Source: an uncultured Ignavibacteriales bacterium
GTDB lineage: Bacteria > Zixibacteria > MSB-5A5 > GN15 > FEB-12
Assembly: GCA_964618515.1 (NCBI GenBank)
Contig: CAZUAS010000002.1
Coordinates: 3,451-64,414 of the forward strand
DNA: 60,964 nt
Direction of reading: 5' to 3'
Shown here: positions 3,557 through 59,933 of the stretch, piece by piece
How positions within the stretch are numbered: position 1 is the stretch's first letter
How the letters are laid out: each line of letters starts with the position of its first letter
Made by a program: the position numbers and the translations under genes
The notes under the pieces: model-generated
Seen by the model: the letters and a program-made list of their open reading frames with translations, nothing else
Databases searched by the model: none
Told to the model about the DNA's origin: nothing

Positions 3557-3796
3557 AATATCTCCTGGAAGTTATTTTATGAAACAACATTATACCAATG
3601 ATACGTTTTAAAATGGAGATGGAACAACAAGAAACTGCTGTAATTGCAGGATTAAAATACCATACAATTATCAACTTAAATAGTTTACTTAGTCACTAAA
3701 AATTTTATATTACTCCTAAAAATACGGATATTTTAACGTATTATGTTAAGTCATTGAAAGCATGAAAAGTATAAGCTTCTAAAACAGGAAAGACCG

Positions 3797-8624: not shown

Positions 8625-8655
8625 ACAGCACCCCTGTTAAAGATAATTGTTTAAA

Positions 8656-8673
8656 ATAGAAATGTATTTCTAT
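8656..8673. promoter_or_regulatory. Candidate Rrf2 operator (perfect 8-bp inverted repeat)
   Basis: ATAGAAAT-GT-ATTTCTAT sits 32 bp upstream of the Rrf2 start codon. It lies in the 283-bp AT-rich divergent region shared with the pseudopilin operon. Confidence 0.45.
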
Positions 8674-8907
8674 ATTTCCACTTTTTATATACGGCTAAAT
8701 AATAAAAAATGATTGCCTTTGTCTATATTTTTTTAGTGCTCTGTCTTTCATTGTGAACATTTAAAAAAAGATTACCTACTCTTAGTTGTTAAACCCTATA
8801 TCCTTTCAAAAGTTCCCATTTAATCCACATTAAAAATTAACATAAAAACCACCTGTAAACAGCCGATAATTAAAGAAAAACGGCTTAAAATTGCTTCAGA
8901 GTAAAAA

Positions 8908-9657
8908 ATGTCCAAAAACAGACAACACGGCGGTTATACTTTAATAGAAATCGTAGTGGTTATTGTTATTATCGGGATTCTCAGTTCGCTTACCCTTAAG
9001 TCCCTGCGCACCACCAGTGAAATAGCCCGGATAGAGGAAACTCGCAAGGAACTGGACCGCCTGACCTGGTCCATAATCGGCCAACCGGATATAAATAATT
9101 CCGGCTCCCGCAGTAATTATGGTTATCTGGGCGATATCGGAGCTTTACCGCCTAATCTTGAGGCGCTGTTTCAAAATCCGGGTGGATTGGCCACCTGGCG
9201 AGGTCCGTATATCCGCGATGATTTTTATTCCGACAGCACCAGCCGTAATTTTAAAAAGGATGCCTGGGGTGTTAATTATATTTATTCCGGCGGTCTTACC
9301 CTGTCTTCTACTGGCGGGGGAACACCACTTACCCGTCAAATCGCACCCTCGCTTGACGACCTCCTTTACAACAAAGTAGTCGTGGTAGTTACCGATTTAA
9401 ACAATACTCCCCCCGGAACGGTTTTCAAAGATTCCGTAAGATTCGTTCTGCGATGCCCCGACGGCCATGGTTCCTACAGGTTCTTAAATCGCCACCCCGA
9501 TTTCAACGGCCTGGCGGTATTTGATTCCATCCCTATCGGTTTGCATGAACTGAGGTTGGTTTATCAGCCGGATAAGGATACTCTTCTCCGCCAAATAAAT
9601 GTCGATATCGGATCGGATTTGTACCTTGAGATGAATCTTTTTAAAGACGTCTGGTAA
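8908..9657 (+). CDS. GspG-like pseudopilin (prepilin N-terminus) fused to a beta-sandwich-like module, short form
   Basis: 249 aa. Class III signal GG|YTLIEIVVVIVIIGIL. GspG-like core YGYLGDIGALPPNLEALFQNPGGLATWRGPY...DAWG. Second module VRFVLRCPDG...FDSIPIGLHELRLVYQPDKDTL (CarboxypepD_reg-like). Ends in DVW. Confidence 0.75.
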   Translation: MSKNRQHGGYTLIEIVVVIVIIGILSSLTLKSLRTTSEIARIEETRKELDRLTWSIIGQPDINNSGSRSNYGYLGDIGALPPNLEALFQNPGGLATWRGPYIRDDFYSDSTSRNFKKDAWGVNYIYSGGLTLSSTGGGTPLTRQIAPSLDDLLYNKVVVVVTDLNNTPPGTVFKDSVRFVLRCPDGHGSYRFLNRHPDFNGLAVFDSIPIGLHELRLVYQPDKDTLLRQINVDIGSDLYLEMNLFKDVW

Positions 9658-9660
9658 AAT

Positions 9661-10821
9661 ATGTCAATTGTACGCCGAAAGGAACAGGGTTTCAGCCTTA
9701 TCGAGCTGACGGTTTTCATGGTCGTTATCGGCATCATGCTGACGGTGGCTATGAAATCGATGACCACCGTCACCGAAGATATCCGCCGGACGAAGACGCT
9801 GCAGGAGATGGAGTCACTGGCAAAAGGGATTACGGGTAACCCGGATATCATGACCGGTGGCCTTCGTTCAGATTTCGGATATGTCGGCGATGTCGGAGCC
9901 TTCCCTCCCAGCTTGCAGGCTCTGGTAACCAATCCGGGTTACAGTACCTGGCACGGTCCATATTTGCTTGCCGGGTTTGTTCAAGACACCGAGGGCTACC
10001 GCCTTGATGAATGGGGACAACCTTATGTTTATGACGGTGGTTTGTATATTACGTCCACTGGAAGCGGCGCCAATCTTACCAAAAAAATCGCTGATAACAC
10101 CTCGGATTATCTTTCAAATTCATATCAAGCCCTTCTACATGATGCCGCTAACAATCCGCCCGGTGTAATTTATCGCGATTCGGTCACTGTCAGGATAACC
10201 GTTCCCGATGGTTCCGGGACAACTCTCACCAAAAACTATCCGGTCGATTCCGCGGGTTTATTCACTCTGGATTCACTTCCAGTCGGGAAACATCCCCTGT
10301 GCATGATATACACTCCCCGGGTTGACACACTTTTACGTTATATTACCATCCTTCCTCGCCATAAAAGTCAATCTCTTCCGGTTTTTCAATTTGCCGCCGC
10401 TTATTTTTCCGGTGAGACCGAAACCGTTTACGACAGTGCTCTGACAAAAATCAGCGGCTCTGATTCCATTTACAGCGGTTTTTGCAATAACATCTCCCTG
10501 TGGATTCAAAATAACACCGGTGTAAGTGTCACCATAAATTCCTTAAAATTGACCTGGTCCGGTCCGACTGCCTATTATCGCTATGTTATCTGGGACGGTA
10601 CTACGGTTTTCAACCGTAACAATCCCAAAGCCGCTTCGGGCGAAACGGTCTTTTTCACCTCCGGCCAAACCATTGCCCAGGGGGAAAGTTTTAAGATACA
10701 AATCGCGGATTTCCGCAACCAGCCGAATGGCGGTTCACGGGTTAATATGCACAATACTAACTTTACCCTGGAACTTTCCGACGGGTCAACTTTGAGTGTT
10801 ACAGTGGGGAGCTGTCCATGA
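9661..10821 (+). CDS. GspG-like pseudopilin with beta-sandwich module and an extra ~130-aa C-terminal domain, long form
   Basis: 386 aa. QG|FSLIELTVFMVVIGIM, then FGYVGDVGAFPPSLQALVTNPGYSTWHGPY, then VTVRITVPDG...LDSLPVGKHPL. Extra domain ...SLKLTWSGPTAYYRYVIWDGTTVFNRNNPKAASGE... ends in GSCP. Its stop overlaps the next start (ATGA). Confidence 0.75.
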   Translation: MSIVRRKEQGFSLIELTVFMVVIGIMLTVAMKSMTTVTEDIRRTKTLQEMESLAKGITGNPDIMTGGLRSDFGYVGDVGAFPPSLQALVTNPGYSTWHGPYLLAGFVQDTEGYRLDEWGQPYVYDGGLYITSTGSGANLTKKIADNTSDYLSNSYQALLHDAANNPPGVIYRDSVTVRITVPDGSGTTLTKNYPVDSAGLFTLDSLPVGKHPLCMIYTPRVDTLLRYITILPRHKSQSLPVFQFAAAYFSGETETVYDSALTKISGSDSIYSGFCNNISLWIQNNTGVSVTINSLKLTWSGPTAYYRYVIWDGTTVFNRNNPKAASGETVFFTSGQTIAQGESFKIQIADFRNQPNGGSRVNMHNTNFTLELSDGSTLSVTVGSCP

Positions 10822-11981
10822 CAGGAGTTCATGATTCTAAAGGCTTCACCCTGGTGGAAATCGTTATGGTTATTGTTATCACCGGTATCCTGGCTACCAT
10901 AGCTTTTCAGGCCGGGTCGAATGTTTACGATACGGCTCGAGTTGAGGAAACCAGGCAGGAACTTGACGCCCTGGCTTTTGCCATTACCGGCAATCCAGCT
11001 TTAAATAACGATGGCGTGCGTTCAGATTTTGGTTATGTAGGCGATATCGGAGCAATGCCGCCCAGTCTTGACGCCTTGGTGCAAAATCCCGGCGATTACA
11101 GTACCTGGAGGGGACCGTATTTCCAGAATCGTTTTTCCCAGATAACCGATGATTATAAAACCGACGCCTGGGGTAAGACCTATCTATATAATGGGGTCAC
11201 TATCGCCAGTCAGGGTAAAATAGTCGGGGGCGGCTGTGGCGGCCCGGTGACATCCGGTGACATTATCCGACGAATATGCAATTCCACCAGTGACCTTCTT
11301 CTCAACCGGGTCAGCGGTACGGTTTTCGACCGTCATGGCACGCCGCCGGGGTATGACTACCGGGATTCCTTGCGCGTGGTTCTGACTGTCCCCGACGGTG
11401 CCGGTAATCTTGCCCGGCGTACCGTCTCGGTAAACTCCGGCGGTTATTTCTCTTTCGATTCGATTCCCATCGGCAATCATGACCTGGCGATAATTTTTCT
11501 GCCTGACCATGACACCCTCCATCGTTTCGTTTCCGTAACGCCTAAATCCTCGGTGTACCAGGAATATTATCTCTCCCGAAGTTTATCCTCGGCTAGTTTG
11601 TCCGAACTGACCAAAATCAACTACTCCGATTCTTTAAATAGCGATTGTCATGGTTTTTATTTCTGGATTAAAAACAACTCCGGCAGTGATATCACCATAA
11701 ACTCGATAGTTCTGCTCTGGAGCAGTCCGACGGCTTATTATCGATATGCCCGGTGGCAGGGAACGACTGTTTTCAACCGTTCCAATCCCAAAGCTGCATC
11801 AGGGGAATTAATCAGTTTCAGCCCGCAGACAATAAGTCCCGGGGAGACTATCAAAATTGAATTCGATGATTTTCGCACCTTCCCCAACGGCGGTTCACCG
11901 GTGAATATGAACAACACCAGTTTCAATATTGCCTTCTCCGACGGTTCTATCCTTGAGGCTGCAACGGGAGCCTGTCCATGA
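10818..11981 (+). CDS. GspG-like pseudopilin, long-form paralog
   Basis: 387 aa. KG|FTLVEIVMVIVITGIL, then FGYVGDIGAMPPSLDALVQNPGDYSTWRGPY. The C-terminal domain matches the previous gene (PTAYYRYARWQGTTVFNRSNPKAASGE) and ends in GACP. The same TGTCCATGA overlap junction leads into the next gene. Confidence 0.75.
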   Translation: MTGVHDSKGFTLVEIVMVIVITGILATIAFQAGSNVYDTARVEETRQELDALAFAITGNPALNNDGVRSDFGYVGDIGAMPPSLDALVQNPGDYSTWRGPYFQNRFSQITDDYKTDAWGKTYLYNGVTIASQGKIVGGGCGGPVTSGDIIRRICNSTSDLLLNRVSGTVFDRHGTPPGYDYRDSLRVVLTVPDGAGNLARRTVSVNSGGYFSFDSIPIGNHDLAIIFLPDHDTLHRFVSVTPKSSVYQEYYLSRSLSSASLSELTKINYSDSLNSDCHGFYFWIKNNSGSDITINSIVLLWSSPTAYYRYARWQGTTVFNRSNPKAASGELISFSPQTISPGETIKIEFDDFRTFPNGGSPVNMNNTSFNIAFSDGSILEAATGACP

Positions 11982-12712
11982 ACAAACATCATGACAATTA
12001 TGGATTCACTCTTGTAGAACTGGTGATAGTTATAATAATAATCGGTATTATCGCAGCTATTGCCACCCGCCAGATGTCCGGGACAATCGAAACCGCCCGC
12101 ATGGAACAGACCAAAAAAGAAATGGACCAGTTGGCGCGGGCAATCGCCGGCGACCCGGCTTTGTATTCCGGTCAGTCACGAATGGATTTCGGGTATGTAG
12201 GGGATGTAGGTGCTTTGCCGCCGGATCTCGATGCCTTGGTGCAAAACCCCGGCAGCTATGCCACCTGGAAGGGTCCTTATATGACTCAGGGATTTGACTC
12301 TGATGACTTTAAAAAAGACGGCTGGAACACGCCCTATATTTACATCGACACTCTTATACGCTCCACCGGGTCCGGAAGTAATATCGATAAGCTTTTTGCC
12401 GTAAGTACAGCCGCTTTACTTAATAACCGCCTTGAAGGTGTCATAACGGACGCTGACAATACCATGCCGGGCATCGTCTATCGCGATTCATTAATCATCC
12501 ACTTATCATATCCTGATGGTATCGGTGGAATAACGACCGCCTTAACCAATCCCAATATCACCGGCAATTTTTATTTTGACGGCCTTCCCATAGGTAATCA
12601 TAACCTGGAAATTATTTATCTTCCGGATAGTGACACTGTAACTTATCCGGTCAGCATCCATCCCGGCCGAACCGCAAAAATCAATATCACCTTCCCTGCC
12701 GACTTGTGGTGA
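11978..12712 (+). CDS. GspG-like pseudopilin, short-form paralog
   Basis: 244 aa. YG|FTLVELVIVIIIIGII, then FGYVGDVGALPPDLDALVQNPGSYATWKGPY, then IIHLSYPDG...FDGLPIGNHNLEIIYLPDSDTV. Ends in DLW. Confidence 0.75.
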   Translation: MNKHHDNYGFTLVELVIVIIIIGIIAAIATRQMSGTIETARMEQTKKEMDQLARAIAGDPALYSGQSRMDFGYVGDVGALPPDLDALVQNPGSYATWKGPYMTQGFDSDDFKKDGWNTPYIYIDTLIRSTGSGSNIDKLFAVSTAALLNNRLEGVITDADNTMPGIVYRDSLIIHLSYPDGIGGITTALTNPNITGNFYFDGLPIGNHNLEIIYLPDSDTVTYPVSIHPGRTAKINITFPADLW

Positions 12713-28468: not shown

Positions 28469-28585
28469 AATCTTAAGTTCTCTAATAAGTTACATGATTA
28501 TACAAATATCCTTGAAGCCTTTCAAGACTTTTTTATTTTTTTCCTTATTCCTGGCTTCAAACAAATATTATAGGAAAGTTTTATC

Positions 28586-28606
28586 GATGTTTCAAGTTGA
28601 AACATC
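28586..28606. promoter_or_regulatory. Perfect 21-bp palindrome (candidate operator) in the lpxC / secreted-giant divergent region
   Basis: GATGTTTCAA-G-TTGAAACATC, with no adjacent T-run. A second inverted repeat CTTGAA-GCCT-TTCAAG lies at 28511-28526. Confidence 0.4.
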
Positions 28607-28857
28607 ACAATTTAAATCCTGTCGAAAATCACTATAATTGACTCGCACACTAACAAAAAAAATAAGGTTTCGCCGTTCTTTTGTTGTGAAAGTAAGTTTC
28701 TGTAATAACAATAGTTAAGAGAACCTCTCAAGATCCGATTAATAAGAAAAATATTCATGTTTTGTTAATCTTATAATAAAAAAAGTCTTTCATAAAAGAG
28801 GTTTTTTTTGTATTATATCTTTGGACTGATTTACTACTTACCTATTAGGGAAGCAAC

Positions 28858-36845: not shown

Positions 36846-36870
36846 ACCTATAAGATTTCTTTATAGATAT

Positions 36871-36886
36871 TGCAAATTAGGTGCCC
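36871..36886 (-). promoter_or_regulatory. Sigma-54 (-24/-12) promoter candidate for the T9SS cargo gene
   Basis: Minus strand reads GGGCAC-CTAAT-TTGCA (consensus TGGCAC-N5-TTGCW) with correct GG-N10-GC spacing. Lies ~25-35 nt upstream of the candidate start codons. Confidence 0.5.
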
Positions 36887-37069
36887 TCCTGTAATAAAAT
36901 ATATATAATGAAAATAAAATAGCAAGGGAAAACTGTCAACCCCTAATTAATTGATATAATATGAGTTACTTCAAGATATTAATTTTTTTGTTTTAAGATT
37001 TAGGAACGCTTGTGAGCTTGATTAAAATTCTCTGCAAGCCTTTTCACAAATTTTCAAAATAATTAAAAA

Positions 37070-37082
37070 GTCAATAATTGAC
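37070..37082. promoter_or_regulatory. Inverted repeat GTCAAT-A-ATTGAC in the divergent intergenic region
   Basis: Perfect 6-bp arms. Lies ~190 bp upstream of the sigma-54-like promoter, a UAS-compatible distance. Confidence 0.3.
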
Positions 37083-37172
37083 AAACCGGTTGATTTTGGA
37101 TAGCTATACACTGAAACTCTTGCTTAATTTTAGACGTAGTAGAAGTAGGCTTATTATGCTCTGGACATTCGG

Positions 37173-37189
37173 TTTTCAAATTTTGAAAA
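37173..37189. promoter_or_regulatory. Perfect palindrome TTTTCAAA-T-TTTGAAAA upstream of the DUF4097 gene
   Basis: 8-bp arms, 60 bp upstream of the ATG at 37249. TTTCAA half-sites also occur at 37042-37047 and 37052-37057. Confidence 0.35.
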
Positions 37190-37248
37190 TCGAAATATTA
37201 AAAGGGTTGCTAAGTAATTGAAAATGTATTAAATCTGAAGGTGCCGGA

Positions 37249-46127: not shown

Positions 46128-46563
46128 AATAATTTCAACAACGTACCGATCAGGTGGTCACGTCATCGATGGTGCAGGTCAGAACACCGGTCTGGTCAAT
46201 GGTCCAGGTATCGACCGTAGCATCATCGTCAAGGTTGGCTGTCGCCGTAGCGGTGAAGGTGTTGGCGGCCGCCACGATAGCATAGGTGTACATGGCGCTG
46301 GTCATGACTTCGACACCGATTTGCGGGAAAGTACCGCCGGCTCCGGCAGCGATGGAGACACCACCGTCACCATAAGTACCGTTGGCCTGACGATAGGTCC
46401 GCTGCATGGTATATATCTGCTTCAAAAGCTGTTTGCATTCGGACTGCTTGGACTTGGTCGTGGCCTGCATGAAACGCGGAATAGCCAGAGCGGCCAGAAT
46501 ACCGATGATTACGACCACAATCATCAACTCGATAAGGGTGAAACCCTTCTGGCGATTGTGAAA
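46097..46563. repeat. 467-bp perfect direct repeat, copy B
   Basis: See copy A. Confidence 0.9.
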
Positions 46564-46575
46564 TATGTTAAACAT
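46150..46575 (-). CDS. pilA: Type IV major pilin, copy 2 (identical to copy 1 from residue 5 onward)
   Basis: 141 aa. Leader MFNIFHNRQKG|FTLIEL.... Differs from copy 1 at residues 3-4 only. Confidence 0.9.
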   Translation of the reverse strand: MFNIFHNRQKGFTLIELMIVVVIIGILAALAIPRFMQATTKSKQSECKQLLKQIYTMQRTYRQANGTYGDGGVSIAAGAGGTFPQIGVEVMTSAMYTYAIVAAANTFTATATANLDDDATVDTWTIDQTGVLTCTIDDVTT

Positions 46576-46867: not shown

Positions 46868-47296
46868 TCAATTAAGCACGTCATCAATGGTGTTAGTAAG
46901 AATACCCAGGTCATTTATTGTCCAGGTATCGATAGTAGCGTCATCGTCGATATTAGCGGCTGCCGTTGCCACGAAGTTGTTGGCACCTCCGATTACCGTA
47001 TAGGTATATTTGGCATCCGCCATTATCTCTATCCAGATCGAGCTTAAGGCATTCGGGCTGGCCGCCGAGGCCGGTCCGGCCGGAATGTAATAACTGTTAA
47101 CACTCGACTGCTGACGATAAGCATGCTCATTAACATAAATTTGCTTTAAGATCAGCTTGGCCTCGGACTGTTTGGTTTTCGTGGTTGAACGCATAAAACG
47201 GGGAATAGCCAGTGCCGCCAGAATGCCAATGATGACAACCACTATCATAAGTTCTATCAGGGTAAAACCGCCATTTCTTGATTTTTTCATAAACAT
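46868..47296 (-). CDS. Type IV pilin, divergent third paralog
   Basis: The ORF track gives 46868-47329. I prefer the start at Met12 (47296), with GAGGA 6 nt upstream, giving leader MFMKKSRNGG|FTLIELMIVVVIIGILAALAIPRF. Met14 (47290) is also possible. The C-terminus ...DDDATIDTWTINDLG resembles copies 1/2. Confidence 0.85.
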   Translation of the reverse strand: MFMKKSRNGGFTLIELMIVVVIIGILAALAIPRFMRSTTKTKQSEAKLILKQIYVNEHAYRQQSSVNSYYIPAGPASAASPNALSSIWIEIMADAKYTYTVIGGANNFVATAAANIDDDATIDTWTINDLGILTNTIDDVLN

Positions 47297-47344
47297 AATT
47301 TTCCTCGTTATTTGAGTCTGATATTTCAATCACCAGAATTAAGT

Positions 47345-51958: not shown

Positions 51959-52387
51959 TTATTTTGTCTTTTCCTCCAGCTCTATTAAAACGCCGTTCGT
52001 CCCGGCGGGATGCACGAAAGCGATCCGGTGTCCCTCGGCACCGAGGCGCGGGTTTTCATCGATAAGACGAACCCCTGCAGCTTTTAAAAGCGCCAGTTGT
52101 TTTTCGATATCGTCCACATAAATACACAGGTGATGTAAACCCTCGCCTCTTTTGGCGATAAATTTCGATATCGGACTGTCTTCCGAGGTCCCGCTGAGCA
52201 GTTCAATATTTCCCCCGGTAAAACCGACCTTTTCACCCCCGGTCGAGAAGATGCCCACCCGCACCTTCTGCGAGGCAACTTCCTCTATTTCCTTCACCTT
52301 CGTTCCCGTCAGCTTTTCATACAGGGGAATACTCTTTTCCAGGTCTTTAACGGCTATTCCCACATGAGATATTACGGCATTTTTCAT
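51959..52387 (-). CDS. mce: Methylmalonyl-CoA epimerase (VOC family)
   Basis: 142 aa. ISHVGIAVKDLEKSIPLY ... GEGLHHLCIYVDDIE ... IAFVHP..TNGVLIELEE. Confidence 0.85.
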   Translation of the reverse strand: MKNAVISHVGIAVKDLEKSIPLYEKLTGTKVKEIEEVASQKVRVGIFSTGGEKVGFTGGNIELLSGTSEDSPISKFIAKRGEGLHHLCIYVDDIEKQLALLKAAGVRLIDENPRLGAEGHRIAFVHPAGTNGVLIELEEKTK

Positions 52388-52965: not shown

Positions 52966-53478
52966 TTATTCAAATTCCATAATTTTATCGCCTCTTTCGA
53001 CCGACATCCCTTTTTTGACAAACACCTCTTTTACTCGGGCCGGCGCTTTGGCTTTGATGATATTTTCCATTTTCATGGCCTCGATAACGAAAAGCGGCTG
53101 ACCTTTTTCTACTTTTTCCCCCGGAGCCACCTTGACCTCGAGAACCATACCCGGCATCGGCGCTTTGAAAAGCGTCTCCATCGCCGACACCACCGACAAC
53201 CCCGCGGTTCGGCGCATCTGTGCCAGGTGATAATTTTCCACCGTGGCCATGATATCCAGCCCCATCATGAAAACCTTCCGCCCGCCGTTTTCTCCCTCCA
53301 GCCGAATATCGACTTCATAGGACTTGTTATCAACAAACATCAGCGACCGCGTCTCGCTCAGCTTGCGGCTGACCACCTCAACCTTGCGGCCGTTCACCGT
53401 GACGAAATATTTCTCCGAATGATACTCCAGTTCGATATCGAACTCTTTACCGCCGGTATTTACATGATACCTGGGCAT
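52966..53478 (-). CDS. Biotin carboxyl carrier (biotinyl-domain) protein
   Basis: 170 aa. Biotinylation motif VIEAMKMEN in the C-terminal lipoyl-like domain. Confidence 0.85.
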   Translation of the reverse strand: MPRYHVNTGGKEFDIELEYHSEKYFVTVNGRKVEVVSRKLSETRSLMFVDNKSYEVDIRLEGENGGRKVFMMGLDIMATVENYHLAQMRRTAGLSVVSAMETLFKAPMPGMVLEVKVAPGEKVEKGQPLFVIEAMKMENIIKAKAPARVKEVFVKKGMSVERGDKIMEFE

Positions 53479-55010
53479 CAGCGACTCCCCCCGAATTGTC
53501 GAAGGCTGTTTTTCCGGTGATACGTTACCCAGCCGCAGGCGGGACGGTTATGGCCGGAAGTCTGGCTGAGGATAATTTTACGTTCGTTAATAAAACTGTC
53601 CAGAGCAACGGCGATGGCGGCCTTTTCAAGAACCTCCCCGTCAAGCCGATGGTAATCATTATCCGGATATTCTTCTTCGAGAAACCGGGTCGATAAATCC
53701 CCCTTTATAAATTTTTCATTGTCCATGATGGTCAGGTGAAAACCGATGGTCGAGTCCACTCCGCCAACCCGGTACTCCTGAAGAGCCCTTCTGGTACGGT
53801 CAATGGCTTCCCGGCGGTCTTTGCCCCAGACAATCAGCTTGGCAATCATCGGGTCGTAATAAATCGGAATCTGGGAATTCAGCAGTACGCCGGAGTCAAT
53901 CCGGACTCCCGGACCGGCCGGAATACGGTAATGCGTCAGGGTTCCGGTTGAAGGTACGAAACCTTCCTCCGGTTTTTCGGCATAGATGCGGCACTCAATC
54001 GCATGCCCCCGCAATTTAATATCTTCCTGGTTATAGCTCAGCGGCAACCCTTCGGCAATGAAAACCTGTTCTTTGACCAGGTCCAGACCGGTGACCATTT
54101 CGGTGACCGGGTGTTCCACCTGGAGCCGGGTGTTGACTTCGAGAAAATAGAACGACAGGTCGTGGTCGACGAGAAACTCCACCGTTCCCGCCCCGACATA
54201 ACCGGCGCTCCGGGCGATACTCACCGCCGCCCGGCCCATTTGCTGTCGCAGGGCTTCCGTCACCACCGGCGAGGGTGATTCCTCGATGACTTTCTGATGA
54301 CGCCTCTGGATGGAGCACTCGCGTTCGCCCAGGTATATACAGTTGCCGTGACTGTCGGCTAGAATCTGGATTTCGATATGCCGCGGGCGGGGCAGATATT
54401 TTTCAAGGAATACCCGGCTGTCGCCGAACGCCGAAGCGGCTTCGTTAGCGGCGGATTTCAGCGATTCGGCAAAGAGGTCTTCGGACGTCACCACCCGCAT
54501 CCCCTTGCCCCCGCCGCCGCCGGCGGCTTTAACCAGCACCGGAAAACCGATATCTCTGGCCGCGGCCAGAGCCGACGCCATATCAAGACCGCCGATATCG
54601 CGACCCGGCACCACCGGCAAACCGGCTTTTAAAGCCGTCTCGCGAGCCAGAAGTTTATCGCCCAAAAGACGGATCGTCTCCGGCTTGGGACCGATAAAAA
54701 TTATCCCCGCTTCAAGACATTTTTCAGCAAACAATGGATTCTCGGCTAAAAAACCGTACCCCGGATGAATAGCGTCAGCGTTACATTTCCGGGCGGTTTC
54801 GATTATTTTTTCATGTACCAGATAGCTTTCGGTTGAGGGTGACGGCCCTATATAATAAGCCTCGTCAGCCAGTCGGACATGGTAGGCGGTCTTGTCACAT
54901 TCGGAATAAACGGCAATTGCCTCGATACCCAGGTCATGGCAGGCACGGATAATCCGAACGGCGATTTCGCCCCGGTTGGCGATAAGTATTTTCTTTATCT
55001 TTTCAGTCAT
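53478..55010 (-). CDS. accC: Biotin carboxylase subunit (acyl-CoA/pyruvate carboxylase type)
   Basis: 510 aa. KILIANRGEIAVRIIRA, the ATP-grasp GGGGKGMR and the conserved EVNTRLQVEHPVTE. Confidence 0.93.
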   Translation of the reverse strand: MTEKIKKILIANRGEIAVRIIRACHDLGIEAIAVYSECDKTAYHVRLADEAYYIGPSPSTESYLVHEKIIETARKCNADAIHPGYGFLAENPLFAEKCLEAGIIFIGPKPETIRLLGDKLLARETALKAGLPVVPGRDIGGLDMASALAAARDIGFPVLVKAAGGGGGKGMRVVTSEDLFAESLKSAANEAASAFGDSRVFLEKYLPRPRHIEIQILADSHGNCIYLGERECSIQRRHQKVIEESPSPVVTEALRQQMGRAAVSIARSAGYVGAGTVEFLVDHDLSFYFLEVNTRLQVEHPVTEMVTGLDLVKEQVFIAEGLPLSYNQEDIKLRGHAIECRIYAEKPEEGFVPSTGTLTHYRIPAGPGVRIDSGVLLNSQIPIYYDPMIAKLIVWGKDRREAIDRTRRALQEYRVGGVDSTIGFHLTIMDNEKFIKGDLSTRFLEEEYPDNDYHRLDGEVLEKAAIAVALDSFINERKIILSQTSGHNRPACGWVTYHRKNSLRQFGGSR

Positions 55011-55908
55011 CTATAAAATAATCATTATCAATTTTCTTTAATTCATAAAGTGCTACTGAAGATACTCCAAGGTTATATTCAATCATTAGATGTGCAAGTT
55101 CTTCACCATCTATTAAAATTATTGTTTTCTGTATTTTCTTTACATAATCTCTTGCGTCAGCTGTAAATTTAGAAGTTGTGATAAAGACGCCTTTTGTTGC
55201 ATGATGCATTTCTAAACTACCAGCAAATTTTTGTAGTTCTGGTCTTCCTACATGTGTATCCCCCCATTTCTTTGCTTGAATATATATTTTATCTAATCCT
55301 AATTTATCTTCATTAATAATTCCATCAATGCCACCATCACCACTTTTTCCAATAGCTTTTCCAGCATCTTTTCTTGAACCTCCGTATCCCATTTTTAAAA
55401 GTAGTTCAACAACAATTTTTTCAAAAAAAGAATTTGAAGATTCTTCAATTTTTCCTAATAATTCAAAGGCTAATGACTCGTTTATTTCTAAGATACTTGA
55501 TTCAATTTTCTCTTCCGGTGTGTTTTCCTCATTTTCAATATTTTCATAATTCGTTCTTGTTTTTCTTCTACCTTGAAAAGTCTGAAATTCTGGGAATTGC
55601 CATAAAGATTTAGTTGTAATTTGATCTGGTTTTTTTGAAAGAAATTGAATACCTCTATCAGTAATTTTAAAAAAACCCCTTTCAGGACAATCTAATAATC
55701 CTGCTTTTCTCAAATAAGTTCTTGCCCAATTAACACGATTATTAAACTTATATTGCTTACCACTTGGGAGTAATTCTTTTTTTTCTTCATCTGTGAGATT
55801 AAAATTTTCAGAAAGTTCTTTTATCGCATCTTGCAACTTATGTTTTTTATTATCTTGTGCGATTAATAGCAAAGGTAACATTAATTTTTGATAATCTGGA
55901 ATACTCAT
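55003..55908 (-). CDS. mrr: Mrr-family type IV restriction endonuclease (Mrr_N winged helix plus Mrr_cat)
   Basis: 301 aa. N-terminus [13 protein letters not shown]...[16 protein letters not shown]. Catalytic region [26 protein letters not shown]. Hand counts on two 60-nt rows give ~25-27% GC against ~55% in the flank. Confidence 0.88.
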
Positions 55909-57455
55909 AATGGTATATTTCCATGCTTTTTGGGTGGATTAGAATCTTTTTTTGTCTCAAGCATCTCAAAAGCTCGTATCAGCCGCGGCCGGGTGGTTTT
56001 GGGCTCAATAATATCATCGATATACCCCCGTGATGCCGCTATATATGGATTGGCGAATTTCTCCCGGTACTCCTCGGTCTTTTTTTGAATTTCCGCCTCG
56101 GCATCGGCGGCTCCGGCGATATCGTTCTTGAAAATAATTTCCACCGCCCCTTTAGGTCCCATAACGGCGATTTCAGCGGTCGGCCAGGCATAGTTCATAT
56201 CGCCGCGGACGTGCTTGGAATTCATGACATCATAAGCCCCGCCATAAGCCTTGCGGGTGATAACCGTCACCTTGGGTACCGTGGCTTCACAATAAGCATA
56301 AAGCAACTTGGCGCCATTGAGAATAATCCCGCGGTGTTCCTGGTCCACGCCGGGTAAAAAGCCGGGTACATCTTCAAAAGTCAGAAGGGGGATATTGAAG
56401 GCGTCGCAGAAACGAATAAAGCGCGCGCCTTTTATCGAAGACCGGATACTGAGCACTCCGGCCAGCACCGCCGGCTGGTTGGCGATGACGCCTATCGATC
56501 GTCCTCCCAAACGGGCAAACCCTACTACGATATTCTGGGCAAACTCCTCGTGAACCTCGAAAAAGGTTCCCTTATCCACCACCAGGTTGATAACGTCTTT
56601 GATGTCATAGGGCTGGTTTGGATTTTCCGGGACAATATGGTTGAGCGCTTCCTCCTCGCGGTCAGCCGGGTCGCCGGTTTCAATAAAGGGCGGGTCTTCA
56701 CAGTTGTTCTGGGGGATATAACCGACCAGTTTTTTTAATTTAGTGATGGCATCGGCTTCGTTTTCACAGGCAAAATGCGCCACGCCGGATTTGGAAGCGT
56801 GCACCATCGCCCCACCCAGCTCCTCCGAGGTCACCTGTTCGTGCGTCACGGTCTTGACGACATTAGGACCGGTTACGAACATGTACGACGTTCCTTTTGA
56901 CATCAGCACGAAATCGGTAATGGCCGGACTGTACACCGCCCCACCGGCGCAGGGACCCAAAATAACCGAAATCTGCGGCACCACTCCCGAAGCCAGGGTA
57001 TTCAGCAGGAAAATATCGGCATACCCGCCCAGTGACACCACGCCTTCCTGAATCCGCGCTCCGCCGGAGTCGTTGATGCCGATAATGGGCGCCCCGACTT
57101 TAAGTGCCATCTTCATGATTTTACAAATCTTTTCGGCATGGGCTTCGGAGAGCGAACCGCCGAATACGGTGAAATCCTGCGAGAAGATATAGACTTTCCG
57201 CCCGTTTATCTTGCCGCAGCCGGTAACCACCCCGTCTCCGAGGATTTTTTTCTCCGCCAGACCGAAATCCGTCGAACGATGCGTAACAAACATGTCAAAC
57301 TCTTCAAAGGAATTAGTATCCACCAGCAGTTCAATCCGCTCCCGGGCGGTCAGTTTCTTTTTCTCATGCTGAGCATCGATACGCCGGGCGCCACCCCCGA
57401 GTTTCGCCTGGGTGCGCAATTTCTCAAGTTCATTTAATTTTTCTTCTAATGACAT
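55905..57455 (-). CDS. Methylmalonyl-CoA carboxyltransferase / propionyl-CoA carboxylase beta subunit
   Basis: 516 aa. Carboxyl_trans family ([21 protein letters not shown]-terminal KKHGNIPL). Confidence 0.93.
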
Positions 57456-57476: not shown

Positions 57477-58322
57477 TTATACTCGTACGTTAACGACCGC
57501 TTGCGCCACCAGCCGGTTATCCTTTTCTCTGATGAACGCCAGCGGCTGCTGTACATCATGGTCAAAAGCCATTATCACATTTTGATTGACTATCCGGGGC
57601 AAAGTCCGGCGTTTAATTTCCATCGTCTGAAGCGGGTACAAATCGGTCGCCGGGACATAAGCCACTTTCATATGGTGCGCGGTACAGAAAATATCCGCAT
57701 AATAAAAAACACTTGTCCCCCCGGATGTTATCTCCAGGGCGTAATGGGCTTCGGTATGCCCGCCGGTAATAACCGCTTTGATGCCCGGAAACAATTCGGT
57801 GTCCCCATCGAAAAAATCCACCTGCCCGGCTTGTTCCAGGGGCGCAAGGCGGTCGGGGATATAAACCGCCGCGGTTCGTTCATCGGGATGCAATGCTCTT
57901 TGCCATTCGGACCGGTTGATTATATAACGGGCGTTTTTAAAACGCGGCAGGTATCTTCCTTTTTCATTTTTTACCGCCCCCCCGGCATGGTCGGTGTGAA
58001 GATGGGTCAAAATGACAAAATCGATATCTTCGGGGCTCAAGCCAAGACCGGCCAGACCGGCTTCAAGCGACGACTCACCGTCGGCGGTGTAAATTTTCTT
58101 TTCTCTTTTGGTCAGGGTATCGCCCAGCCCGGCATCGAATAGATAGTTTTTCCCATGGGCTTTCAGGACAAAAAGATTGGTCACCATGGGGATGAGATTA
58201 TTTTCATCGGCCGGTATCAGATTCTGCCAGATTGCTTTTGGTACCACGCCGAACATACTACCTCCGTCGAGCCGGAATTTCTGCTCGACGAAGGTATATA
58301 TTTCGAACAGCCCCACTTTCAT
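57477..58322 (-). CDS. MBL-fold metallo-hydrolase
   Basis: 281 aa. HxHxDH motif THLHTDHAGG. Confidence 0.85.
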   Translation of the reverse strand: MKVGLFEIYTFVEQKFRLDGGSMFGVVPKAIWQNLIPADENNLIPMVTNLFVLKAHGKNYLFDAGLGDTLTKREKKIYTADGESSLEAGLAGLGLSPEDIDFVILTHLHTDHAGGAVKNEKGRYLPRFKNARYIINRSEWQRALHPDERTAAVYIPDRLAPLEQAGQVDFFDGDTELFPGIKAVITGGHTEAHYALEITSGGTSVFYYADIFCTAHHMKVAYVPATDLYPLQTMEIKRRTLPRIVNQNVIMAFDHDVQQPLAFIREKDNRLVAQAVVNVRV

Positions 58323-59468
58323 TTAGCGGCCTATAACGTTCCCCGCAATAACCAGGCGTTGGACTTCCGAAGTTCCCTCGTAAATTTCCAGCACGCGCTG
58401 GTCGCGGTACAATTTCTCGATAACGGAGAACTCCCCGATATAACCGTACCCGGCATGTATCTGCATAGCGCGGTCAACACAGAAATTGGCCGTTTCGGAA
58501 CAATACAATTTGGCCATGGCGGCATCAACCGAAAACGGCTCGCCTTTGTCCTGTTTTAGTACGGCTTTATAGCACAAGCCGCGAGCGGCTTCAAGACGCG
58601 TGGCCATATCGGCAATCATCCACTGAATAGCCTGAAGCTTGGCGATGGGAGCCCCGAACGCGATACGTTTCTTGGCATAAGCGACCGATTCATCCAGCGC
58701 CCGCTGGGCAATCCCCACTCCCTGGGCCGCCACCCCGATCCGGGCGCTGTCCAGCGTCATCATGGCATAGCGGAAACCCTTGCCGATTTCACCCAGCAGG
58801 TTCGCTTTGGGAGCTTTTACGTCTTTTAAGATAATCCCGCCGGTCGTAGCCGCCCGCATCCCCATCTTGTTTTTGAGTGTCCGCGCCTGCCAGCCGGGTT
58901 GTTTGGTATCTTCTACGATTATAGCTGAAAGCTTGGGCTGGTCTTTAATTTTGCAGAATAAAACGCCTAAATCAGCCGCATCGCCGTGCATGATGAATAT
59001 TTTCTCGCCGTTAATGATAAACTCGTTGCCGGTCTCCACGGCTTCGGTGGACTGGTTGGCGGCATCAGACCCGGCGTTGGGCTCGGTCAATACGAATGCG
59101 GGAATCCTCTTCCCCGCGGCGCAGTCAGGAACGAATTTCTTCTTGAGCTCGTCGCTGGCAAAATGGATAATGGGATAAGTCGCCAGCTCACCCACGGCGC
59201 ATAGAAGCCCCACCGCGGCGTCATGATAACAAAGTTCCTCAATCAGGGTTATATACTCAAGGTGCGACTTGCCCTTACCGCCGTATTCCGGAGGCATGGC
59301 GTAGCCGATAAAACCCGCTTCACCGATTTTACGATAGAGATCGACGGGAAATTTTCGAGGTTCCGGCATCTGGTCCAGTTCCCTCGAACGGGGATAGATT
59401 TCCTTCTCCGCAAATGCCTTTACTTCGTCTCTGACAGCCTGTTGTTTCGGGTCAATATTCTTGTTCAT
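58323..59468 (-). CDS. Acyl-CoA dehydrogenase
   Basis: 381 aa. ACAD blocks (LTEPNAGSD, catalytic-base region YEGTSEVQRLVI). Abuts the MBL gene start. Confidence 0.92.
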   Translation of the reverse strand: MNKNIDPKQQAVRDEVKAFAEKEIYPRSRELDQMPEPRKFPVDLYRKIGEAGFIGYAMPPEYGGKGKSHLEYITLIEELCYHDAAVGLLCAVGELATYPIIHFASDELKKKFVPDCAAGKRIPAFVLTEPNAGSDAANQSTEAVETGNEFIINGEKIFIMHGDAADLGVLFCKIKDQPKLSAIIVEDTKQPGWQARTLKNKMGMRAATTGGIILKDVKAPKANLLGEIGKGFRYAMMTLDSARIGVAAQGVGIAQRALDESVAYAKKRIAFGAPIAKLQAIQWMIADMATRLEAARGLCYKAVLKQDKGEPFSVDAAMAKLYCSETANFCVDRAMQIHAGYGYIGEFSVIEKLYRDQRVLEIYEGTSEVQRLVIAGNVIGR

Positions 59469-59513
59469 TGTTCCTCCCAGAACAAAATGTTTATTTTATC
59501 GAAAATTATTCCG

Positions 59514-59933
59514 CTACATTATTTTTTCATCCGACGATTTCCGGGCCACCGCCTTTTTTAAAAAGTCGATGGCTTCCTCGGTGGGAGCACCCGGTGTGAA
59601 AATGCGGGCGACACCCATTTTTTCCAGAGCGATTTTGTCGTCTTCCGGGATGATACCGCCGCCGAACAGGAGTATATCCTCGGCGCCCCGTTTTTTCATT
59701 TCTTCGAGGATGGCCGGGAACAGCGTCATGTGTGCGCCGGAAAGAATCGATATCCCGATCGCGTCCACATCCTCCTGAATCGCCGCCTCGACAATCATCG
59801 GCGGGGTCTGGCGAAGACCGGTGTAGATGACTTCCATCCCGGCATCGCGAAACGCCGCCGCTACCACTTTAACACCCCGGTCGTGGCCGTCTAGACCGGG
59901 CTTGGCTAACAGCACTCTGATTTTTTTTGCCAT
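59514..59933 (-). CDS. Methylmalonyl-CoA mutase B12-binding (small/C-terminal) subunit
   Basis: 139 aa. [21 protein letters not shown] carries the DxHxxG cobalamin motif. Confidence 0.9.

Follow-up and report, generated by a model that had tools for sequence, protein, structure and literature searches.

A full-length Mrr-type restriction endonuclease gene between the subunit genes of a propionyl-CoA carboxylase operon in Zixibacteria

A gene for a Type IV (modification-dependent) restriction endonuclease of the Mrr family lies inside a biotin-dependent carboxylase operon of an uncultured Zixibacteria bacterium, on a stretch of 60,964 nucleotides of contig CAZUAS010000002.1 (the whole stretch is called the window here). 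The gene, which is extremely AT-rich, fills the slot between the genes for an acyl-CoA carboxyltransferase (CT) and biotin carboxylase (accC), and its ends overlap both neighbours. The account preferred here, which is considered likely as a whole, is that the gene encodes an intact Mrr nuclease, entered the operon as an old insertion, has been kept under purifying selection, and has become the sequence on which accC translation would now depend. Solitary Type IV restriction genes usually count as cargo that variable defence islands readily gain and lose. Here such a gene has been held to synonymous saturation between the subunit genes of a core enzyme, and it recurs across a candidate-phylum clade.

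The open reading frame (ORF) and its Pfam matches bear out the initial annotation of a 301-residue Mrr_N plus Mrr_cat protein between CT and accC; the coordinates of this and other features are collected in Table 1. The PADLOC profile PDLC03657 (mREase_IV) matches at 9.4e-90, with residues 1-298 of the protein aligned to positions 1-314 of the 317 in the profile. An alignment of 334 homologues gives 80 positions with 95% conservation or more, of which 79 are kept in the window protein; the family-invariant residues D191, D195, E200, D201, D206, Q211, A212, K213, and W215 are all present, and the C-terminus is the natural end of the family (...KKIDxDYFxDD). The AlphaFold2 (AF2) model has a predicted local distance difference test (pLDDT) score of 85.8 overall and above 90 in the Mrr_N domain. 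In Foldseek searches with this model, the C-terminal half finds MspJI (6e-5), AspBHI (5.4e-4), archaeal AF1548, and the RPB5 fold, and the N-terminal half finds winged-helix proteins; the family profile matches the Mrr-like nuclease domain of LlaBIII (4.9e-5). A direct sequence search of the PDB with the protein gives no match, no solved structure fits the full Mrr_N plus Mrr_cat protein, and no model in an NCBIfam scan matches it. The ORF apparently encodes a full-length, active Mrr-family Type IV enzyme with an intact nuclease core, as far as its sequence and predicted fold can tell.

Members of the Mrr family restrict methylated DNA and are genotoxic when incompatible methyltransferases are present (PMC3152355, PMC2993543). 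By analogy with them, the winged helix-turn-helix domain of the window protein would recognise methylated DNA and the D...QxK nuclease would cut it (PMC3152355, PMC2993543); the enzyme would thus cleave incoming DNA carrying foreign methylation, with no need for a partner methyltransferase. There is no methyltransferase, integrase, or transposase among the neighbours, the genes within about 8 kb being metabolic or regulatory according to Pfam and NCBIfam, and flanking repeats or a target duplication are absent around the gene; annotation of the neighbours and the repeat search agree in this with what had first been noted. For a Type IV enzyme, the absence of a methyltransferase is to be expected and is no anomaly.

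Positions 55266-55330 of the window, within the Mrr gene, are also matched over only about 30-60 nt by high-depth contigs (17-25x) from several DNA and RNA runs, which then diverge; these contigs have loose ends at 55266 and 55292 and variants at 55296, 55297, and 55302. Because the stretch encodes the most conserved motif of Mrr proteins (GDGGIDGII), the diverging contigs probably come from Mrr genes of other organisms that are more abundant in these communities.

The age of the insertion can be judged from the closest relatives. In a search of 5.8 billion proteins the two nearest homologues of the Mrr protein are 68-69% identical to it. They too fill the slot between CT and accC, in a syntenic operon (loci L007-L009) whose CT, accC, and biotin carboxyl carrier protein (BCCP) are 89, 81, and 66% identical to those of the window, respectively; the window CT is 82-87% identical to CTs from metagenome-assembled genomes (MAGs) of the candidate phylum Zixibacteria. 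L007-L009 share the ATGA overlap between CT and Mrr as well as the 8-nt overlap with accC, and the G+C content at third codon positions (GC3) of their Mrr gene is 0.22, against 0.65-0.69 in the flanking genes. Between the window and the L009 lineage, synonymous divergence (dS) is 1.4-2.9 for every gene, which is saturation, and dS of Mrr is at least as large. Shared junctions together with saturated dS place the insertion before the split of these lineages. In the same comparison, nonsynonymous divergence (dN) of Mrr is 0.21 and dN/dS is 0.074 (neighbours, 0.04-0.10), with the tightest constraint on the catalytic domain (dN of 0.13 vs. 0.24 for Mrr_N). The sequence comparison thus indicates an insertion older than the split between the window and L007-L009 lineages and purifying selection on Mrr ever since.

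Occupancy of the slot extends further: Mrr genes are found at the same CT|accC position and in the same orientation in at least five more diverged lineages of related Zixibacteria operons (Table 1). Empty sites, in which CT is followed by 12-18 nt with a clear Shine-Dalgarno (SD) sequence and then accC, are present in the close relatives L010, L090, L099, and L012. L094 and L020, which are more distant, likewise have an empty site, and no Mrr occurs in the slot among about 150 more distant CT loci. The C-terminus of CT (...KKHGNIPL and stop) and the N-terminus of accC are intact in occupied and empty loci alike. Since outgroups and several sister operons run directly from CT to accC, Mrr is extraneous to the operon, and its initial description as a foreign defence gene within a metabolic operon stands. 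That description would have been refuted had all relatives carried the same gene with host-like composition. Several relatives do carry Mrr in the slot, which makes the arrangement old and inherited, but its composition in them is not host-like.

Other occupants and irregularities of the slot were seen in several loci. At L093:6651-7064, and identically in L097 (CT 77% identical), the slot holds an AT-rich gene (34% GC) for a 137-aa IS200-like Y1 transposase (PF01797, 5.8e-9), so the slot accepts other cargo. The empty slot of L094 (3413-3494) has an 83-nt spacer with a G+C-rich palindrome (CCCTCACCCC...GGGGTGAGGG) that resembles a repetitive extragenic palindromic (REP) sequence or a terminator. 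In L173, a Zixibacteria MAG, an element of about 295 nt (248-541) directly follows the CT stop; two identical 76-nt direct repeats (254-329 and 461-536), each with two hairpins, surround a 131-nt core that carries its own inverted repeat. On either side of this element stands a copy of the same 28 nt from the CT 3' end (218-245 and 542-569), a duplication that does not flank Mrr; the element looks like a mobile one of the miniature inverted-repeat transposable element (MITE) or REP type that has duplicated its target. Between Mrr and accC, L173 has a further two hairpins (about 1490-1570). Slot occupancy is unreadable in CP070766.1, a complete MAG chromosome of Zixibacteria, because CT is followed there by a run of N (L013:7534-7633).

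The composition of the gene is as extreme as was first suspected. Mrr has a GC content of 0.292 and a GC3 of 0.142, compared with 0.521 and 0.596 for CT and 0.545 and 0.603 for accC; hand counts had given 25-27%, slightly below the computed 29%, and about 55% for the neighbour, which is about right. A sliding GC analysis, as proposed at the outset, and codon-position statistics both single the gene out: it has the lowest GC of all 906-nt segments in the 61 kb (mean 0.470, standard deviation 0.041), and among 52 ORFs with a mean GC3 of 0.524 (standard deviation 0.073) it is the sole gene below 0.35, about five standard deviations low. The shift is abrupt, as had been stated, yet it does not keep strictly to the gene borders: roughly the last 55 nt of CT and the first 30 nt of accC are AT-rich too. 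At 55909-55965 the last 18 or so codons of CT are AT-rich synonymous choices (GC3 of about 0.18 vs. 0.60 gene-wide, and about 0.58 in the L009 ortholog); they could be the trace of a recombination event or have been selected to keep the start region of Mrr unstructured. A general AT-rich island was considered as well and rejected, the other low-GC patches (about 3557-3796, 8625-8907, 28469-28857, and 36846-37248) being intergenic; intergenic DNA in the window has 26-35% GC. The bias reaches the protein, in that FYMINK residues make up 0.35-0.38 of the window and L009 Mrr proteins vs. a family mean of 0.25 (standard deviation 0.04), with conserved residues unaffected.

In the window and L009, GC3 of Mrr persists at 0.14-0.22 in hosts whose GC3 is 0.52-0.68. 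Mrr lies below its flanks in GC3 in every occupied locus; outside these two lineages, the values are 0.42-0.60 for Mrr vs. 0.60-0.80 for the flanks. As the window and L009 genes are both low in GC3 while their synonymous sites are saturated, AT-richness is not a signature of fresh transfer; it is a persistent, probably maintained feature of this pair and not the scar of a recent arrival. Possible causes include AT-biased mutation with little constraint from codon usage or GC-biased gene conversion on Mrr; selection to keep translation of Mrr, a potentially genotoxic nuclease in a well-expressed operon, inefficient; selection of AT-richness as an unstructured leader for accC; and allele replacement from an AT-rich relative. 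A GC3 of 0.14 kept in hosts averaging 0.52-0.68 also makes atypical composition an unreliable clock for horizontal transfer.

The Mrr gene was found in several metatranscriptomes. RNA contigs cross the CT/Mrr junction (55876-56026 in run X20 and 55418-55940 in run X26) and the Mrr/accC junction (54972-55122 in X20), and a consensus scan of the gene strand from CT to accC found no sigma-70 promoter or intrinsic terminator, although the consensus may not suit this phylum. From these bridging contigs and the lack of internal promoter and terminator signals, Mrr appears to be co-transcribed with the carboxylase cluster. It weighs on the other side that the RNA contigs are assembled, unstranded, and may contain carried-over DNA; the proposed co-expression with propionate/methylmalonyl-CoA metabolism fits the contigs with the same reservation. 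In four RNA runs of one study (X20, X25, X26, and X27), Mrr (55034-55940) is covered more continuously than CT and accC, the reverse of what uniform DNA carry-over would lead one to expect; that part of the mRNA may be more abundant or more stable, or the assembly may favour AT-rich sequence.

Translation of accC differs between occupied and empty loci. The SD interaction energy of accC is +0.6 kcal/mol in the window, among the weakest of 47 genes, and +0.4, -2.5, and -1.5 kcal/mol at other occupied loci; at empty sites it ranges from -4.5 to -11.1 kcal/mol. Only one of the 47 window genes has a less structured initiation region than accC, whose folding energy there is -1.3 kcal/mol (mean -7.1). 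The accC N-terminus agrees with its orthologs, and no alternative in-frame start exists downstream of the overlapping ATG. Both overlaps, ATGA at 55905-55908 and the 8 nt at 55003-55010, are in the sequence as first described. Such signals suggest that accC probably depends on coupling to Mrr translation, on an unstructured AT-rich leader, or on both. A point on the opposite side is the moderate use of SD sequences in the window genome, where 30% of the genes have energies of -5 kcal/mol or lower, so an accC without an SD is no proof of coupling.

In the proposed mechanism, Mrr translation would begin by termination-reinitiation at the CT stop within ATGA, and accC would be initiated by ribosomes that terminate 8 nt downstream at the Mrr stop. 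Alternatively, ribosomes would load on accC independently of an SD, on the unstructured AT-rich leader provided by the Mrr 3' end. Because Mrr sequence would in either case supply the initiation of accC, most deletions in Mrr are inferred to be polar on accC and BCCP, and this polarity would act as a ratchet, anchoring an otherwise dispensable solitary defence gene beyond any benefit in defence. If anchoring is true, deletion of Mrr or a nonsense mutation in it impairs synthesis of biotin carboxylase and BCCP, expression of a defence gene is tied to propionate and branched-chain catabolism, and the extreme AT-richness tunes nuclease dosage or serves as an SD-independent leader for accC. The idea can be pressed further into addiction by translational coupling, in which the Mrr ORF has replaced the accC ribosome-binding site (RBS) and the host has been forced to retain and translate the nuclease across a deep radiation within the Zixibacteria; in this strong form it is doubtful.

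Three other explanations for the locus have little to recommend them. An assembly chimera, with an AT-rich segment wrongly joined between CT and accC, would account for the abrupt composition change and for nothing else. The identical Mrr protein with the same neighbours is found on at least 8 independently assembled Logan contigs; the 1.9-kb junction region occurs in 19 of the 24 runs listed, from about 10 studies (sludge, soil, wastewater, and bioreactor); and long DNA contigs span both junctions with 0 mismatches, so the read support asked of the junctions reveals no misassembly. No contig skips Mrr and no empty allele was seen, the matching contigs being all identical and the runs with a lower k-mer share thinly covered. 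With the same arrangement in diverged assemblies from JGI, ENA, and NCBI, and identical junction-spanning contigs in many independent runs and studies, a chimera is rejected and given practically no chance. A recent horizontal insertion, in which an AT-rich foreign gene landed lately and has not yet ameliorated, is in keeping with the extreme GC3 and sharp borders and with empty sites in the close relatives L010, L090, and L012, and it is what the first description of the gene implied. That part of the description fails against the AT-rich ortholog with identical junctions in L007-L009, the saturated operon-wide dS (1.4-2.9), and the dS of Mrr, which is no smaller; the perfect ORF-to-ORF compaction and the loss of the accC SD also imply long co-adaptation, and recency is very improbable. 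Marginally less remote, though still quite unlikely, is a domesticated or inactive Mrr-like protein, for instance a DNA-binding regulator of the operon or a mere translated spacer for accC. It could draw on the secondary Pfam match to NA-iREase1, a family of inactive restriction endonucleases (1.6e-10), on the unusual metabolic context, and on the dependence of accC on the 3' end of the ORF. Mrr_cat scores far above NA-iREase1, however, and all invariant residues of the nuclease core are kept; over the full length of the protein dN/dS is 0.07 and the constraint is strongest in the catalytic domain, and a mere spacer would not keep its protein sequence.

Whether the slot was filled once or several times is a closer question. 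A single ancient insertion, inherited vertically thereafter, is the simplest account and, in rough terms, the modestly favoured history, with repeated capture or allele replacement a possible but somewhat weaker candidate. Common descent is supported by the identical slot and orientation and by the confinement of occupied slots to a single clade of hosts. The junction ...CCGTTGTA(G/A)-NN-ATG is common to L091, L170, and L175, which form an 88% clade in neighbour-joining (NJ) bootstraps once all three are included, and in L173 the copy displaced beyond the inserted element retains the same TAG-CT-ATG junction. Rare residues are common to slot Mrr proteins (T22 in four lineages, 1.2% of the comparison pool; E76 in three, 0.3% of the pool), and ranking of pool proteins by the sharing of rare residues correctly predicted that P0152 is a slot gene; the pool proteins P0245, P0125, and P0273 share such residues and lie outside the slot. 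The correlation between Mrr and accC identity (r=0.80) is driven mainly by the single close pair of window and L009 and carries little weight. Several results weigh against single descent. The seven full-length slot Mrr proteins never form one NJ clade (0/100 and 0/60 bootstraps), and each one's identity to Mrr proteins of other phyla (55-61%) equals or exceeds its identity to the remaining slot lineages (48-59%). Junction spacing (-4, 2, 9, and 12 nt) and GC3 (0.14 to 0.60) vary among lineages. The tests themselves have limits. Quartet mapping of slot pairs (0.63) is not above matched long-branch controls (0.59). The host tree from CT, accC, acyl-CoA dehydrogenase (ACAD), and the MBL-fold hydrolase (metallo-beta-lactamase, MBL) is star-like, so that gains and losses cannot be counted. 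The slot Mrr proteins sit on long branches, with a mean distance to the pool of 0.65-0.77 vs. 0.52 within the pool.

The alternative to single descent makes the CT|accC junction an integration hotspot, a recurrent landing or exchange site at which different Mrr alleles were captured or swapped several times. A resident Mrr might, for example, be exchanged by recombination within the conserved 3' end of CT and 5' end of accC; the AT-rich allele of the window and L009 would then be a later replacement from an AT-rich donor. Such a site would explain the lack of monophyly, the wide variation of junctions and GC, and the equal or closer relatives in other phyla, the best outside matches of the window Mrr being in Nostocales cyanobacteria at about 60%. 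The other cargo of the slot (the Y1 transposase of L093 and L097, the hairpin element of L173, and the palindromic spacer of L094) also fits, as do the AT-rich codons reaching about 55 nt into the window CT, which a recombination tract would leave. Against a hotspot stand the absence of repeats or mobility genes flanking the Mrr genes, the same orientation and tight packing every time, and a 2-nt junction common to Mrr proteins only 58-69% identical; moreover, we know of no mechanism that directs Mrr genes to one intergenic site. Long branches alone can break NJ monophyly, sub-clades appear as sampling grows, rare shared residues exist, and Mrr divergence is of the same order as that of BCCP and the MBL-fold protein between the same hosts. 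On this balance a hotspot is possible but rather unlikely, and one ancient insertion is kept as the working history.

Judged from its gene content, the host cluster is a biotin-dependent propionyl-CoA carboxylase/methylmalonyl-CoA pathway operon. Its order, meaB-mcm-B12-ACAD-MBL-CT-(Mrr)-accC-BCCP-hyp-epimerase on one strand, is kept in L001 and L007-L010; the mutase large subunit extends past 59961, and a small hypothetical gene (hyp) lies between BCCP and methylmalonyl-CoA epimerase. CT matches TIGR01117 at 1.2e-243, below the cutoff of that model, and propionyl-CoA is its putative substrate. The MBL-fold hydrolase (57477-58322, minus strand), whose best NCBIfam match is a YtnP-family lactonase (1.1e-61, below cutoff), is kept between ACAD and CT throughout the operon in this clade.

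Table 1. Features of the Mrr locus in the window (positions on the forward strand) and Mrr genes in the same slot of other loci.
Feature	Position	Strand	Basis or details
Mrr-family Type IV (modification-dependent) restriction endonuclease gene, 301 aa	55003..55908	-	ORF, Pfam, PADLOC, composition
Mrr_N winged-helix DNA-binding domain (aa 6-91)	55636..55893	-	Pfam PF14338 4.7e-32; AF2; Foldseek
Mrr_cat PD-(D/E)xK-type nuclease domain (aa 155-275)	55084..55446	-	Pfam PF04471 1e-36; LlaBIII profile; Foldseek
Nuclease-core motif D191-G-G-I-D195 ... E200-D201 ... D206 ... Q211-A-K213-x-W215	55264..55338	-	Invariant in 334 family members
ATGA overlap of CT stop (TGA) and Mrr start (ATG)	55905..55908	-	Sequence; same in L007/L009
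8-nt overlap ATGACTGA, accC start within last Mrr codons	55003..55010	-	Sequence; L007/L009 have ATGATTAA
Acyl-CoA carboxyltransferase (CT; PccB/MmdA-like), 516 aa, upstream neighbour	55905..57455	-	Pfam Carboxyl_trans 1.5e-199
Biotin carboxylase accC, downstream neighbour	53478..55010	-	Pfam; TIGR00514 653 bits (cutoff 626.5)
Biotin carboxyl carrier protein (BCCP)	52966..53478	-	Pfam Biotin_lipoyl 2.5e-18
Methylmalonyl-CoA epimerase, last gene of the cluster	51959..52387	-	TIGR03081 144.6 bits (cutoff 114.95)
MBL-fold hydrolase, acyl-CoA dehydrogenase, B12-binding methylmalonyl-CoA mutase subunit	57477..59933	-	Pfam; L001 gene order
Slot Mrr, L091/L171/L172			53% identity to window Mrr; spacers 2 nt and 5 nt; GC3 0.60 (flanks 0.76)
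Slot Mrr, L170			54% identity to window Mrr; 2-nt spacer; GC3 0.50
Slot Mrr, L175/L176			54% identity to window Mrr; 2-nt spacer; GC3 0.48 (flanks 0.60)
Slot Mrr, L092			50% identity to window Mrr; spacers 9 nt and 3 nt; GC3 0.59 (flanks 0.80)
Slot Mrr, L011			N-terminal half only, 38% identity; 12-nt spacer with SD; TTG start; GC about 0.52
Slot Mrr, L173 (Zixibacteria MAG)			58% identity to window Mrr; GC3 0.42 (flanks about 0.68)

Elsewhere in the window, four consecutive genes on the plus strand (8908-12712) have prepilin-type N-terminal signals (...GFTLIE/GYTLIE...), and two more genes of this type lie on the minus strand at 46150-46575 and 46868-47329. They look like a pseudopilin cluster of a type II secretion or type IV pilus system and are unrelated to Mrr.

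The locus reveals no new enzyme class or immunity mechanism. It allows one to ask, in a natural setting, whether a dispensable gene can become permanent through the ratchet of translational coupling. The locus also suggests that expression of a defence gene can be slaved to a metabolic operon, and it is a convenient marker for population genomics of Zixibacteria. No paper on this arrangement was found, and a literature search combining Zixibacteria with restriction endonuclease gave only incidental mentions. What sets the locus apart from described cases is the age of the insertion, its spread across a clade, the ORF-to-ORF compaction between enzyme subunits, the loss of the RBS, and the persistent composition; the enzyme itself is ordinary.

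Among known enzymes, E. coli K-12 Mrr and its family share with the window protein the two-domain architecture, a length of about 300 aa, the D...QxK core, and a solitary state without a methyltransferase; the window gene differs in being embedded with overlapping codons in an operon of central metabolism. MspJI, AspBHI, and the Type ISP enzyme LlaBIII (4f0p, 4oc8, and 4xqk) are the closest solved folds or sequences, and they correspond in the nuclease domain only: MspJI and AspBHI have an N-terminal reader resembling the SET and RING-associated (SRA) domain and LlaBIII is a 1578-aa helicase-methyltransferase fusion, whereas the window protein has Mrr_N. As for the insertion, restriction and restriction-modification units have been described that entered operon-like clusters at a start/stop boundary (Furuta, Abe & Kobayashi 2010, PMC2853133), and a solitary Type IV gene, mcrA, has inserted without mobility genes (PMC2853133; Ishikawa et al. 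2010, PMC2993543). Published operon insertions are polymorphisms of recent date that distinguish closely related genomes, and they often come with a target duplication as long as about 100 bp (PMC2853133, PMC2993543). The window Mrr resembles those units in landing at a gene boundary, leaving the flanking genes intact, being present or absent among relatives, and lacking an integrase or transposase. Unlike them, it has no target duplication, is ancient, clade-wide, and under purifying selection, overlaps both neighbours, goes with loss of the downstream SD, and keeps an extreme composition. The slot also recalls defence-gene hotspots, which likewise have a fixed position, conserved flanks, and variable occupancy (here Mrr variants, an IS200-like gene, a MITE-like element, or nothing). 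In contrast to such hotspots, it separates two genes of one operon whose products are subunits of a single enzyme. With few exceptions its cargo belongs to one single-gene family, keeps one orientation, and is joined to the translation signals of the genes on either side.

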